Part shown: positions 6,224 to 11,862 of the stretch, in pieces
Numbering within the stretch: position 1 is the first letter of the stretch
Layout: each line of letters begins with the position of its first letter
Source of the DNA: a virus
Length of the DNA: 64,000 bases
IMG/VR virus record: IMGVR_UViG_3300023239_000322
Location: 1-64,000 of that record
Strand: one strand, 5' to 3'
Made by a program: the position numbers and the translations under genes
The notes under the pieces: model-generated
What the model saw: only the letters and a program-made list of their open reading frames with translations
What the model was told of the DNA's origin: nothing
The model's database searches: none

Positions 6224-6415
6224 ATGACTATAGCAGAACTACAACGGTTAGCAGGCATTACTGAGAAGAAGAAATCAAAGTCTTTCAGTAACATCAGTTA
6301 TACTGCGGCCGAAAAAGCTAAAATAATGAAAAAAAGAAAAATTAAACCAGGCACGCCTGAATGGTTTAAGTTGTGGTTTTCGAGACCCTATCTCACAGGC
6401 GAAAAACCTTACTAA
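6224..6415 (+). CDS. Small basic hypothetical protein
   Basis: TAAATA 5 nt upstream; ELQRLAGI N-terminal motif; PGTPEWFKLWF. Confidence 0.6.
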   Translation: MTIAELQRLAGITEKKKSKSFSNISYTAAEKAKIMKKRKIKPGTPEWFKLWFSRPYLTGEKPY

Positions 6416-6939
6416 GCAACCTTTGCTTTTATACCTAAATACTGTTCCCACTTAGGGTCTTTGATTTCTACATGACTGTTGCGCCATGCTGATGCTAGTC
6501 CCCAATAGTCTGGTTTAAACGGTTTGCGTATCGGCTTTCTCAGTTTATCAGCCTTGCGACTATTGCAACTCTTACATGAAGTTACACAGTTCTCCCACGA
6601 CGTTTTGCCATTTAGGCTACGTGGGATAACATGATCTATGGATAAATCTTTGAAGTCAAACGTATCTGCACAGTACTGACACTGATATAAATCACGCAAA
6701 TAAACATTTGTTCTACTGAAACGTACATAACGTTTAGGATTAAAGTATTCCTTGGTAACTGCTACACTAGGCACATTTAAGGTAAGTTTTTCGCTGTTTA
6801 TGTGCCAATCAGGATAGGTTTCCAGCACTTGTATGCGGCCTAAGAACATCAATTTAACTGAGTGGTGCCAATGTATTACAGACAGCGGCAGTACTGAAAT
6901 GGGGGTGTAATCTTTGTTTAGTAGCAGAGTATCTGACAT
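6412..6939 (-). CDS. HNH endonuclease (McrA/HNH_5-like)
   Basis: RDLYQCQYC...SIDHVIPRS...WENCVTSCKSCNSRK; likely start MSDTLLLN at 6939. Confidence 0.9.
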   Translation of the reverse strand: MSDTLLLNKDYTPISVLPLSVIHWHHSVKLMFLGRIQVLETYPDWHINSEKLTLNVPSVAVTKEYFNPKRYVRFSRTNVYLRDLYQCQYCADTFDFKDLSIDHVIPRSLNGKTSWENCVTSCKSCNSRKADKLRKPIRKPFKPDYWGLASAWRNSHVEIKDPKWEQYLGIKAKVA

Positions 6940-6967: not shown

Positions 6968-7615
6968 ATGTCAAACGAAGCAAACATTATTAAGTCTCCT
7001 TACCAGAAGGTAAGCTTCACAGAGGAGCAAATACAGGAATTCATGAAGTGTGCAGACCCAGACACCGGGCCGACCTTCTTTATGAGTAACTTCTTTAATA
7101 TACAGCACCCCACAAGAGGTAAGATGCTGTATAAGCCATTTGAGTACCAGGATAGACTGATCAACGCTTACCATACAAACCGATTCAGCATTAGTCTTAT
7201 GCCCAGGCAGACTGGTAAAACAACCACTGCCGCTGGGTACCTGCTATGGCGGGCCATGTTTAACCCAGATAGCACAATTCTTATTGCCGCACACAAGTAC
7301 ACAGGTGCGCAAGAGATTATGCAACGTGTTAGGTATGCATACGAACTTTGCCCGGACTATATACGTGCTGGTGTTGTTAGTTACAACAAAGGCAGTATAG
7401 ACTTTGAAAACGGATCACGTATTGTTTCACAAACAACCACCGAAACAACTGGACGAGGTATGAGTATTACACTGCTATATTGTTTAGGTGGAGACACTAT
7501 TGTTCGTATTCGAAACAAACAAACGTTGGCAGAAGAAGATATTACATTAAAGGATTTATGTATTAAACTTTATAGTCCAGATGAATATTCAGGTGATGAA
7601 TTTGCATTCGTATAA
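6968..7615 (+). CDS. terL: Terminase large subunit, N-terminal fragment fused to split intein N-half
   Basis: gp17-like Walker A PRQTGKTT and TGRGMSITLLY, followed by the intein block A CLGGDT; likely start MSNEAN at 6968. Confidence 0.92.
   Translation: MSNEANIIKSPYQKVSFTEEQIQEFMKCADPDTGPTFFMSNFFNIQHPTRGKMLYKPFEYQDRLINAYHTNRFSISLMPRQTGKTTTAAGYLLWRAMFNPDSTILIAAHKYTGAQEIMQRVRYAYELCPDYIRAGVVSYNKGSIDFENGSRIVSQTTTETTGRGMSITLLYCLGGDTIVRIRNKQTLAEEDITLKDLCIKLYSPDEYSGDEFAFV
7481..7612 (+). mobile_element. Split intein N-fragment (about 30 aa core plus a 14 aa tail)
   Basis: CLGGDTIVRIRNKQTLAEEDITLKDLCIKL resembles the short IntN of atypically split TerL inteins (AceL-TerL/Cat type). Confidence 0.88.
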
Positions 7616-7618
7616 ATA
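7611..7618 (+). promoter_or_regulatory. T4-type late promoter TATAAATA for the endonuclease and IntC-TerL genes
   Basis: Exact T4 late consensus overlapping the stop of terL-N; ATG at 7623. Confidence 0.65.
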
Positions 7619-7622
7619 CAGT

Positions 7623-8516
7623 ATGAACAAACTAGAGCAATTTAAACGTAGAAATCAAAAAAGAAACTCGCAACTATATTCAGATTACTTAACAGAAAAT
7701 ATAGATTATATACTTTGTCCAGTAAGTAACGAGCGATTAAGTATGATAAAAACAACATACATTGAACGTGTACTAGAGATGACCGTAGCAGAATATGACA
7801 AATTGTTCCCTGGTGTTAGAGGTGTAACGCCCGCCCGCCGAAAAAATATCAAAGATGGCTTAAAAGAAATAGATAAGACTAGTGGATTAACGAAGCACCA
7901 GCTGGCATGTGTTAAATCAAAACAGACATTATCCAGTCTGGATTCAGACGGTGTATCAGGATACGCCAAACTAGGCAAAAAGACCCGTGCTACTCATATG
8001 AACAATATAGACCAATTTGGCAGAAACGGTTATTCACAATTAGCAACACATGCTATTGTAAAAGGCAATAACACTAAGGTTAAGAAAGGAATTATATTAG
8101 ATCCTGCACTACGAAACGAATTTTACCGTTATAAGTCAATAGTATTATATCTTACCGAAAAACAGCGATCAGCTATAACAACTGGATACAAAACAGGAGT
8201 TGCTGGAGTTGCTGGGGCCTACCATATAGACCATATATATTCTATACTACAAGGATATAAAGATAATGTTAGTCCATTATTGATAGGTAGTAAAAGTAAT
8301 TTACAAATGTTGCCTTGGCATGATAATTTATCAAAACATGGTAAGTGTACTATAACCTTGGATACTTTATTCAACCGTGCTAGTTATAATATAGATAGAT
8401 CAAAAAGTGAATTTGATGTTTTTTTAAATATGATTCGTTATGACATAAAAGAATCTGCATTGGTTAGTGGTGCAATGCTAATAGAGAGGTTTAATGAAAC
8501 AAACTTACGCACCTAA
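7623..8516 (+). CDS. Free-standing HNH-like homing endonuclease between the split-intein halves
   Basis: C-terminal YHIDHIYS...NLQMLPWHDNLSK; N-terminal CPVS..MTVAEYDKLFPG; located inside the fractured gene. Confidence 0.7.
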   Translation: MNKLEQFKRRNQKRNSQLYSDYLTENIDYILCPVSNERLSMIKTTYIERVLEMTVAEYDKLFPGVRGVTPARRKNIKDGLKEIDKTSGLTKHQLACVKSKQTLSSLDSDGVSGYAKLGKKTRATHMNNIDQFGRNGYSQLATHAIVKGNNTKVKKGIILDPALRNEFYRYKSIVLYLTEKQRSAITTGYKTGVAGVAGAYHIDHIYSILQGYKDNVSPLLIGSKSNLQMLPWHDNLSKHGKCTITLDTLFNRASYNIDRSKSEFDVFLNMIRYDIKESALVSGAMLIERFNETNLRT

Positions 8517-8829
8517 TACAGAATACCAAATTTTTACACCCAACGGTTGGGAAGATTTTGAAGGCATTTTTGTAAATGAAACTGCAAATAAAGACTCTCG
8601 AAAAATAACATTTAATGATGAGTCGTTTATTATTGCTACCCTTGAGCATCGATTTTTTATCAGTAATACTGAAATTAAAGTAAAAGATATTGTACTAGGT
8701 GATAAATTAGATTCTGAAAATACTATTAAAATAGTAACAGCATTAGAAGATATGGTATTAGAAGACACATACGAAATATTTAATGCAGAGAATCATGTCA
8801 TACTAGCAAATAAGATTAATTCTCATCAA
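8494..8829 (+). mobile_element. Split intein C-fragment (112 aa) ending His-Gln, +1 residue Cys
   Basis: IFTPNGW, block B ATLEHRF (TxxH), block F DTYEIFN, block G ANKINSHQ/C. Confidence 0.88.
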
Positions 8830-9882
8830 TGCGACGAGTTCGCATTTGTTCGACCCACCATTGCTAGAGAGTTTTGGACATCCATATCACCCACACTTAG
8901 TACTGGTGGTCAAGCAATCATTACATCAACACCAAACAGTGACGAAGATCAGTTTGCGTTTATATGGAAACAAGCCAACAAGAGTGTAGACGAGTATGGT
9001 AACCCAACCAAAAACGGGTTAGGTATTAATGGTTTCTATGCGTACAAGTCAGACTGGTGGGAACATCCTGACAGGGATGACAAGTGGAAAGAAGAGGAAA
9101 TGGGGCGTATCGGTGAAGAACGCTTCAGACGAGAACACGGATGTGAGTTCTTAATTTACGACGAAACACTGATTAACAGCACCACACTGATTGACATGGA
9201 AGGGAAAGGTCCCATAGAGAAACAAGGACAAGTGCGTTGGTATAAAAAACCTCAAAAAGGCAAAACATACGTAATTGGGTTGGATCCAAGTCTTGGCACA
9301 GGTGGTGATCCCGCGGCTATACAAGTATTTGAATTGCCTACAATGATACAATGTGGCGAATGGCAACACAACAAAACACCAATACAAAGACAAATTGGTA
9401 TCCTAAAGGAAATTTGTGACTACATTGCGGAAATGACACAAACACCCAATAACATTTATTATAGTATAGAAAACAACACACTTGGCGAAGCAGGACTGGT
9501 AGTGATCAGTGATATGGGTGAAGAGAACATCAAAGGCACATTTTTAAGTCAGCCTGTTACCCCGGGTTCGTCTAGACTACACAGAAAAGGGTTTACTACT
9601 ACAAATAGGTCTAAGCTAACAGTGTGTGCAAAGTTTAAAAGTTTGATCGAAAGTAAGAAAATGATTATCAACAGTCAAAACTTAATTAGTGAACTTAAAA
9701 CATTTGTGGCGCACGGTGCTAGTTTTAGCGCAAAACAAGGCGAACGTGATGATTTGGTCATGGCCAGTTTATTGGCATTAAGAATGACACAGGCACTACA
9801 GAGTTTTGACAGTGAACTAGATAGTCACATGCGTGATGGTGCAGATGATTTCCAAGCGCCGATGCCCTTTATAATGATATGA
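8494..9882 (+). CDS. terL: Split intein C-half fused to terminase large subunit C-terminal fragment
   Basis: After SHQ comes CDEFAFV (Walker B), then ITSTPN (motif III) and the nuclease motifs IGLDPS, SIENN, DDLVMA. Confidence 0.92.
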   Translation: MKQTYAPNTEYQIFTPNGWEDFEGIFVNETANKDSRKITFNDESFIIATLEHRFFISNTEIKVKDIVLGDKLDSENTIKIVTALEDMVLEDTYEIFNAENHVILANKINSHQCDEFAFVRPTIAREFWTSISPTLSTGGQAIITSTPNSDEDQFAFIWKQANKSVDEYGNPTKNGLGINGFYAYKSDWWEHPDRDDKWKEEEMGRIGEERFRREHGCEFLIYDETLINSTTLIDMEGKGPIEKQGQVRWYKKPQKGKTYVIGLDPSLGTGGDPAAIQVFELPTMIQCGEWQHNKTPIQRQIGILKEICDYIAEMTQTPNNIYYSIENNTLGEAGLVVISDMGEENIKGTFLSQPVTPGSSRLHRKGFTTTNRSKLTVCAKFKSLIESKKMIINSQNLISELKTFVAHGASFSAKQGERDDLVMASLLALRMTQALQSFDSELDSHMRDGADDFQAPMPFIMI

Positions 9883-10428: not shown

Positions 10429-11862
10429 ATGCGTGAATTAGACAACATATCAGCTTCTTTATTTGAAAAAATCCGTGCTCGTTTTGACAACATTAGTCTT
10501 GGGAACAACAAGGCTAACCGTACTAGCGACCCCGAACTTGCAAGATTTTTTAACTTTGACTACGTAGGAGAAGATGGAGAGAATTACGGAAATGTTACTA
10601 TTAGTATCATTGATGAACAATCACTTAAAGTTTATTATGGTATGAACATAACAGAAGAAATGTCCGATCTCGACACAAAAAAATGGTTTATGTTCTTAAA
10701 GGATTTGCGCATGTTTGCAAAAAGAAACATGTTAAACTTTGATGTCCGTGATATCAATCGTAGTAACCTTGATTTAAGAAATATAAAACAACAAAGTGTA
10801 GCAGATGGTACTTTGGACTCAGACGAGGTAGTATCAGAAGCAAAGTTGTATGGTGACAATAGAGACAAGCATACCAGTTATGCAAACTTAGGTGAGCATA
10901 AAATTATTATTAAACACGTAGAATCAATTGACCCAGACAAACATGGTGCTCGTGCCAGAAACATCAGCAAGGTTTTTATTGAAACACCAGTAGGAGAACG
11001 CTTCTTACTTGATCACAAAAACCTACATGGTGCTAGGGCATTAGCGAATCACCTAAATCGTGGTGGCGAAATTAACGATAGCGGTAGCGAAGTTATCGCT
11101 GAGATGGTTAAAGAGATGAGTGCTATGCGACACTTTGCTCGTAACATGAACAACAGAACATTTGAAGACACAGAAACAACACGCATGGTCGAAGCGGCAC
11201 TTGCTCGCTATCAAGAAGTTAAAAAGAATTTGGAAAGTTTCAAAGGATCCAAAGGACACGGGATATTGTTATCCATGGCAGAAAACTATGCCAAACCAGA
11301 AGACGACGTCGATATAGATGATTTGCGTGAGCGTTTTGTTAAGAAAATATACGACGATAGATTCAATGACGCACTACCGTATGTACAACGTGCGTACACA
11401 AGTCAATTTGAAGACTGGGCAACAGACGTAACAGAAGAAACATTTGGTCCAGCCGCAACCGATAAACTTTTAGAACTGTTTGACGATCCAATCACAACTG
11501 GTGTAGACGGACAAGACGCCATGGCCGCAATACAAGGTATTAGTATCGTGGATAACGATGATGTATCAGCTCAGTTACAAGAATTAAGCAAGCAAGGACC
11601 AGATGTAGATGCAAGACCAATGATTTCTGCCTGGCTAGCCCAAAACGGTGAATCAGACCTAGCAGAAGAACTTGAAGCAATACTGCAATCACAAGCAATA
11701 AACACAACCGCTCCTGCACCACGCCCACAAGAACCAGACAATGACACATATGCGGCATCAACAATGCCAGCTGGTAATGGCGATCCAGTAATACCTAATG
11801 CCATGAACGAAGATGAAGATTTAGACATGATTCGTTGGTTAAGTGGTTTGGATAAAAAATAA
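10429..11862 (+). CDS. Hypothetical phage protein (late, probably structural)
   Basis: 477 aa ORF with TAAATA 5 nt upstream. Confidence 0.6.
   Translation: MRELDNISASLFEKIRARFDNISLGNNKANRTSDPELARFFNFDYVGEDGENYGNVTISIIDEQSLKVYYGMNITEEMSDLDTKKWFMFLKDLRMFAKRNMLNFDVRDINRSNLDLRNIKQQSVADGTLDSDEVVSEAKLYGDNRDKHTSYANLGEHKIIIKHVESIDPDKHGARARNISKVFIETPVGERFLLDHKNLHGARALANHLNRGGEINDSGSEVIAEMVKEMSAMRHFARNMNNRTFEDTETTRMVEAALARYQEVKKNLESFKGSKGHGILLSMAENYAKPEDDVDIDDLRERFVKKIYDDRFNDALPYVQRAYTSQFEDWATDVTEETFGPAATDKLLELFDDPITTGVDGQDAMAAIQGISIVDNDDVSAQLQELSKQGPDVDARPMISAWLAQNGESDLAEELEAILQSQAINTTAPAPRPQEPDNDTYAASTMPAGNGDPVIPNAMNEDEDLDMIRWLSGLDKK

Follow-up and report, generated by a model that had tools for sequence, protein, structure and literature searches.

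Fractured genes, in which a split intein is combined with a free-standing homing endonuclease gene (HEG), were described by Dassa et al. (2009; PMC2677866). In the sections of that paper considered here, they include a Lake Gatun terminase locus (GOS-TerL) with an unusually early split, and TATAAATA boxes are found upstream of the HEGs, mostly within hairpins. The natural terminase inteins AceL-TerL, GOS-TerL and Cat-TerL (Thiel 2014, Bachmann & Mootz 2015, Stevens 2018) have an IntN of 25-37 aa and an IntC of ~104-122 aa, as given in the relevant part of PMC11766414. Inteins in the Walker B motif of the large terminase subunit are also known, such as mycobacteriophage TerL1-e (PMC5050341). 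A target-like sequence in front of an HEG has been described for I-TevI, encoded in the T4 td intron. According to the extracts of PMC2988022 used here, its operator overlaps a late promoter and has 15/20 identity to the homing site (Edgell et al. 2004), and I-TevII and I-TevIII look similar in layout. Fractured terL genes with an atypically split intein, TerL Walker-B inteins and HEG operators that mimic a homing site are already known.

In this study, we analysed a stretch of 64,000 nt (the window) of a phage genome that consists of a single 141-kb contig. The terL gene here is a fractured gene, made up of an N-extein with a short IntN, a free-standing HEG, and a long IntC with the C-extein (Table 1). 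One enzyme is encoded by two ORFs on the same strand that carry the intein halves, with the motifs CLGGDT, TLEH and SHQ/C (the slash marks the junction). The intervening endonuclease ORF, whose assignment as a nuclease is itself weak, overlaps the downstream part by 23 nt (8494-8516), and IntC starts there behind a GAGAGG Shine-Dalgarno sequence. As in other atypically split TerL inteins, the short IntN holds motif N1 only and the long IntC holds the remaining motifs. The conserved core of IntN extends to ~7579 (~33 aa). From 7583 the frame is shifted relative to the relatives and reads EYSG-DEFAFV.

Table 1. Features of the fractured terL locus, with positions counted from the first base of the window
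Feature	Positions	Strand	Evidence or remark
Classical HNH endonuclease gene	6412-6939	-	Pfam HNH_5/HNH, E ~1e-16; directly upstream of terL
TerL-N + IntN ORF	6968-7615	+	
TerL N-extein, 171 aa, Walker A QTGKT, ends ...SITLLY	6968-7480	+	Pfam Terminase_6N, E 2.3e-9
IntN, short atypically split N-fragment, CLGGDT...	7481-7612	+	Block A motif; alignment with 22 homologous TerL-N/IntN ORFs
G-DEFAFV-stop (reported feature)	7592-7615	+	25-nt block in its native frame; stop is the TAA inside TATAAATA
Conserved 25-nt block TGATGAATTTGCATTCGTATAAATA	7594-7618	+	Putative half-site copy 7594-7612 overlapping the TATAAATA box 7611-7618
TGA of the block	7594-7596		Usual IntN stop; out of frame in the window
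Putative HEG, free-standing, 297 aa	7623-8516	+	phrog_5104 match; 55 homologous loci
IntC + TerL-C ORF	8494-9882	+	
IntC, long C-fragment, 112 aa, block B TLEH, ends SHQ	8494-8829	+	25 homologous loci, 57-77% identity
TerL C-extein, Cys+1 then DEFAFV	8830-9882	+	Pfam Terminase_6C
Walker B of the C-extein	8830-8850		Resident copy of the half-site

The locus closely resembles the fractured genes in the sections of Dassa et al. considered here. Both have adjacent ORFs on one strand, an early split that leaves only N1 in IntN, a C-part that exceeds 100 aa, an HEG between the halves whose 3' end overlaps the C-part, and a TATAAATA box 5' of that HEG. The model of an invading element as the source of the upstream stop codon also applies (PMC2677866). 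Unlike those genes, the 22 loci analysed for RNA structure have no hairpin at the box, although the hairpin is frequent there rather than strictly defining. The HEG here is neither GIY-YIG nor clearly Vsr-like, and a duplicated extein or target sequence bordering the cassette on its 5' side is not mentioned in the same sections.

AceL-TerL, GOS-TerL and Cat-TerL, as presented in that part of PMC11766414, are likewise natural terL inteins with a short IntN, a dispensable C-terminal part of IntN and a long IntC. Compared by description rather than by sequence, the present intein differs from them in its position in Walker B and in its final Gln. This residue stands in place of Asn, and the SHQ/C ending is kept in all type-1 relatives. 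TerL inteins of the AceL/GOS type presumably sit in the nuclease half of the protein at .../CEF, a site that reads REHG-CEFL here. This site (window 9135-9160) is uninterrupted, so the intein occupies a different terL site, namely Walker B. The classical HNH gene in front of terL has the usual position of terminase-associated HNH genes and is unrelated to the intein HEG.

The TerL-N/IntN ORF has the 3' end ...LYSPDEYSG-DEFAFV-stop, and its last codons are GGT GAT GAA TTT GCA TTC GTA TAA. The C-extein follows directly after IntC (...INSHQ) and begins with TGC GAC GAG TTC GCA TTT GTT, or C-DEFAFV. We found that the six residues are identical in both places, together with 13/18 bases, and that all five mismatches are at third codon positions. 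This agrees in residues, codons and coordinates with the initial annotation, which had described DEFAFV as occurring twice with 5 of 6 third positions different. By simple arithmetic, the chance that the hexapeptide recurs at a fixed place is p ~20^-6, and ~0.0015 shared hexapeptides are expected anywhere between proteins of 215 aa and 462 aa. The extended 21-mer has a single occurrence in the window at no more than 3 mismatches, against 0.01 expected. The match between the IntN tail and the C-extein is real and not a product of chance.

Dozens of related fractured terL loci were collected from IMG/VR, with IntC, the HEG, a DNA pattern and an HEG profile as queries. Nearly all of them have the same 25-nt block, TGAYGAGTTTGCATTTGTATAAATA, immediately 5' of the HEG, and it is present in 32/32 distinct fractured terL junctions. 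When IMG/VR was scanned with the block pattern, all matches (32/32) were located at the IntN/HEG junction of terL, and the scan returned no other context. An intein-free terL with a break right behind DEFAFV was not found either. The majority base reaches at least 80% in 22/25 columns of the block in an alignment of 22 distinct junctions, compared with 30-70% in the flanks.

The reading frame through the block was tallied over 32 distinct pairings of an IntN tail with a block. IntN ends at the block's own TGA in 22 of them (...IIG, IIV, IIT, IIE or IIR before the stop), and at a TAA just upstream of the block in five more. The block is read in frame in only 5/32, which are the window, L020 (DEFAFV-stop), L181 (DEFGFVDK-stop), L182/L184 (DEFGFVDKKDK-stop) and L185 (DEFAFVHK-stop). 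Nor is it consistently open in the HEG frame, in which stops occur in L020, L022 and L026 and a spacer of ~50 nt is present in L056. Since both the IntN and the HEG frames vary relative to the block, the block is a DNA element and not a conserved peptide. A hidden small ORF or a recoding event in the DEFAFV frame was also considered and rejected, as inspection by eye showed neither a start codon nor a slippery site that recurs consistently in front of the block across loci. The same holds for a conserved regulatory hairpin, for which RNAalifold on 22 junctions returned only a trivial 6-bp stem (-1.9 kcal/mol), with minimum free energies within the range of shuffled sequences.

The closest relative of the window at the junction, L027, explains how the block came to be translated. 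The two are 92% identical over IntN and block, and L027 ends with ...SPDKIIR-TGA. In the window there is a 1-nt gap between 7582 and 7583 (GAT-GAATATTCAGG versus GATAAAATAATCAGG). As a result of this deletion, the IntN frame skips the TGA, enters the native frame of the block and stops at the TAA in TATAAATA. The DEFAFV tail very probably arose by frameshift, as a by-product of a DNA element, and it should not be pursued as a new feature of split inteins.

The in-frame reading could also be produced by a sequencing or assembly error, with one base missing from an A/T-rich run, and the single-base difference from L027 does fall within GATAAAATAATC versus GAT-GAATATTC. Against this, substitutions also flank the gap, and natural in-frame versions exist in other lineages. 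We consider such an error extremely unlikely, and at this 1-nt gap it would leave the conclusion unchanged.

The initial annotation had read the tail as a case of protein-level conservation, and had offered two protein roles for it: a placeholder Walker B strand for unspliced TerL-N, or an extein mimic that gates trans-splicing. Translation of the tail in the five in-frame junctions speaks for a function of this kind, but 27/32 distinct junctions have no translated tail, which removes the basis of both proposals and places the conservation at the level of DNA. The frame in the window results from a recent 1-nt deletion, and the translated blocks show non-synonymous change (DEFGFV) and variable extensions (DK, DKKDK, HK). 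Two of the checks named in that annotation agree with this: the protein tail is mostly absent from homologous loci, and the AlphaFold2 model of TerL-N with IntN (23 sequences) leaves residues 206-215 at pLDDT <50 with no secondary structure, which is a weak negative. In addition, the related GOS-TerL IntN (37 aa) remains functional after truncation to 27 aa (same part of PMC11766414), so this end of IntN is dispensable. A function of the tail as protein has very little in its favour, and is conceivable only for the few in-frame lineages, such as L020, L181, L182 and L185.

We found that the block travels with the HEG. In the HEG-deleted loci L001 and L002, the block is decayed and TATAAATA is lost. 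The contiguous, HEG-less allele L003/L004 is without the block; its sequence on either side matches that of the fractured L008 at 98-99% identity. Among divergent relatives of the HEG, L178 and L193 have degenerate blocks, and the HEG is kept without a block in L177, L175, L169, L195 and Salicola phage SCTP-2. Since some HEG-bearing loci have no block, the block is not essential.

The structure of these alleles was as follows. L001 (1535-2282) and L002 retain a 96-aa remnant of the HEG after an internal deletion that runs from the block into the nuclease half, and their IntN and IntC ORFs are intact. L003 (709-1234) and L004 (IMG/VR 3300022841_000190 and 3300022839_000552) encode a contiguous intein of 165 aa. 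Where L008 has 916 nt with the end of IntN, the block and the HEG, these alleles have an in-frame linker of 55 nt that includes a perfect 14-nt inverted repeat. L003/L004 represent either a very recent loss of the HEG or an empty site for HEG invasion.

More than 70 intein-free terL alleles were recovered, with the Walker B sequence TAC/TGT GAC GAG TTT GCA TTT GTG (the slash marks the insertion point). The block consensus is identical to this intein-free DNA at 20/21 bases. The similarity starts at the intein insertion point, and nothing 5' of the block resembles the N-extein. By these alignments, the first 19-21 nt of the block duplicate the C-extein half of the homing site. The third suggestion of the initial annotation, which took the tail as a scar or as a decoy of the nuclease target, comes close to this evidence and is supported in part.

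The exteins of the window are 88-93% identical to the closest intein-free alleles, L061-L066 (89-91% for the C-extein), and only 52-75% identical to those of other intein-bearing alleles. As they are nearer to intein-free than to intein-bearing alleles, the element has moved horizontally. There is no clear co-conversion tract in the comparison with the intein-free L061-L065; identity is even along the gene at ~84%, with 24-28/30 beside the junction. The two copies of DEFAFV have separate histories, one as coding Walker B and the other as a part of the cassette, and this accounts for the apparent synonymous recoding. Concerted evolution of the two copies was examined as a further candidate and rejected by a permutation test, in which the block and its own C-extein agreed at 75/150 wobble positions against 74.0 expected (p=0.46). 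The absence of such a correlation within loci supports the earlier view that no recent DNA duplication took place within this genome.

We then evaluated the constraint on the block where it does not encode DEFAFV. For this, 27 distinct loci without DEFAFV translation were used, and the minimum number of changes was counted on a tree from the flanking IntN and the N-terminal domain of the HEG. With codons set by the DEFAFV frame, the five third positions account for 22 changes and the first positions for 5, and second positions have none. This period-3 pattern depends on ~27 inferred changes and on a tree that recombination may distort. One first-position change, G to A in the Glu codon (GAG to AAG), is common and forms the minor state in 7/27 of these blocks. 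The TGA and TATAAATA are the best conserved parts of the block. In the 13 nt between them, second codon positions never change and first positions rarely do. The block also prefers TTT/GCA/TTT far more than the extein copies do.

The simplest explanation of this pattern would be a constraint that tolerates just the natural variation of the coding target, as expected of the DNA-binding module of the HEG. Tolerance of wobble positions in the target is documented for several homing endonucleases. On this explanation, the block is untranslated DNA with a codon-like period, whose reader would have co-evolved with a coding target, and it offers a natural experiment.

Wobble-only variation with a period of three would also be explained, with no further assumption, if gene conversion in the course of homing rewrote the block from time to time with coding Walker-B DNA, taken either from the resident extein or from an intein-free allele present through co-infection. 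T4-like phages recombine heavily, which would favour such re-copying. However, the homologous stretch is only ~20 nt, the wobble states of the block and its own C-extein are uncorrelated in the above permutation test, and the codon preference of the block is much stronger than in the extein copies. We regard re-copying as very unlikely.

The last 8 nt of the block form a T4-type late-promoter-like box, TATAAATA, which the half-site overlaps by 2-3 nt. We identified 4 such sites in the window, all on the + strand and at ORF ends or in intergenic gaps. In the window, TATAAATA shows no enrichment (4 sites versus 5.7 expected); only the shorter ATAAATA is enriched, genome-wide. Among 7-mers in the 70 nt that precede genes, it has the strongest enrichment in the whole genome (18 observed versus 1.3 expected), and ATAAGTA is second. 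Eight other genes have a box-N5-ATG layout, and the HEG has box-N4-ATG, so that its box lies only 4 nt before the AUG. The spacing of 5 nt at the eight genes suggests that many late mRNAs of this phage may be leaderless, a reading that takes the geometry of T4 late promoters as its basis. ATAA(A/G)TA sites were recorded at 10429, 36710 (- strand) and 48823 of the window, and at 73922, 97964, 98870, 106073 and 116135 of the genome. The block as a whole was rejected as a generic promoter element, as the other TATAAATA/ATAAATA sites share no upstream sequence and the 21-mer is unique in the window.

These observations bear on the possibility that the block is a relic of the capture of the HEG cassette at or into Walker-B DNA, kept only for the IntN stop and the promoter. 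An invading HEG element has been proposed to bring an upstream stop codon and its own promoter (Dassa et al., PMC2677866, in the sections considered here). The best conserved parts of the block are the very stop codon and box that such a relic would retain, and the loci without a block also agree with it. But a neutral copy should decay, and yet second positions are invariant although the HEG proteins of these relatives have diverged to ~50% identity and the flanks are conserved at 30-70%. Moreover, the upstream part of the block does not recur at the other boxes of the genome. We consider the relic rather unlikely.

Instead, we lean slightly towards a block that is retained as a C-extein half-site serving as an operator of the HEG in the manner of I-TevI, and that at the same time supplies the IntN stop and a putative late promoter. 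For the operator function taken by itself, we see the case as evenly balanced. In the proposed mechanism, the HEG would recognise the Walker-B DNA of terL, and insertion of the intein would part the two halves of the site and thereby protect the carrier genome. The N-terminal targeting module of the HEG would bind the block, which would be retained for that binding. Because the block is without the N-extein half of the site, it would be bound by the HEG and not cut. The operator would overlap a promoter from which the HEG is expressed, probably on a leaderless mRNA, together with the downstream IntC-TerL-C. By binding at the block, the HEG would restrict its own production, and perhaps that of IntC-TerL-C from the same transcript. 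The block also provides a stop codon for IntN, as the invasion model of Dassa et al. predicts.

The layout has parallels to that of I-TevI in the extracts of PMC2988022 used here. In both cases, a target-like sequence lies just 5' of the HEG ORF, with 15/20 identity there and 17-20/21 here, and is without part of the site needed for cleavage. It overlaps a late promoter in T4 and a putative one here. The systems differ in that I-TevI is a GIY-YIG enzyme of a group I intron, whereas a split intein and a putative HNH-like enzyme are found here, and in that binding and repression are proven for I-TevI and inferred here. A half-site copy with a late promoter at the edge of the HEG would extend the I-TevI type of layout from group I introns to fractured inteins. 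A limited literature search gave no account of a homing half-site duplicated at the edge of a fractured-intein HEG, nor of codon-periodic variation in such a copy. An exon-target-like sequence at the place where an HEG sits in its host element was reportedly noted by Loizos, Tillier and Belfort in 1994. That sequence is said to be split across the insertion point and cleavable, unlike the present one, in which the whole half-site is upstream of the HEG.

A more far-reaching version of this proposal, which we consider unlikely, is that the combined half-site and promoter act as a control point over both the HEG and the host gene, so that bound HEG throttles the late supply of the C-terminal half of TerL. 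If it were true, the HEG and IntC-TerL-C would share one leaderless transcript. The wobble variation of untranslated blocks would then reveal the code by which a new, modular HEG targeting domain recognises its DNA.

The HEG product consists of an N-terminal module of ~146 aa and an HNH-like C-terminal half. It gave no match in Pfam and none in a profile search of the PDB. Searches against PHROG returned phrog_5104 (E 2.8e-17) and, weakly, endonuclease VII (E 1e-3). The AlphaFold2 model has a pLDDT of 82, and its matches to HNH folds are weak (VIA Z 4.0 to GVE2 HNH; all Foldseek rows for Cas9-HNH and colicin E9 at E>0.3). A motif YHIDH...NLQMLPWHDNLSKH was recognised by eye. With the reservation that these profile and fold matches are weak, the middle ORF may be assigned as an HNH-like homing endonuclease.

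The N-terminal ~146 aa, with the signature DY[IV]xCP[VI]S, are fused to at least three unrelated-looking C-terminal halves across loci, and three tandem copies of the module are present in L175. None of the variant C-terminal halves was matched in Pfam. The portability of the module fits a role as a targeting domain, as far as can be judged from its distribution among these proteins, and the block is a candidate recognition sequence for this uncharacterised modular HEG family. Modular HEG genes were seen in L027, L036, L048, L177, L182-L190, L193, L195 and L175. Among them, the type with '...AWHADP...ILCLLKT' pairs with a different IntC (33-36% identical, ending TKN/C).

Among cultured relatives, Salicola phage SCTP-2 has the only clear homologue of the HEG (33% identity); this locus is without the block, and TerL-N is not adjacent. 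The distant homologue (L196; MF360958.1, 215733-221632) is gene 225 and lies directly upstream of gene 224, annotated as 'terminase large subunit'. Gene 224 in fact starts with an IntC, and another intein, a contiguous one, follows further along the gene. The neighbouring genes are on the other strand, hence the separate position of the TerL-N/IntN part.
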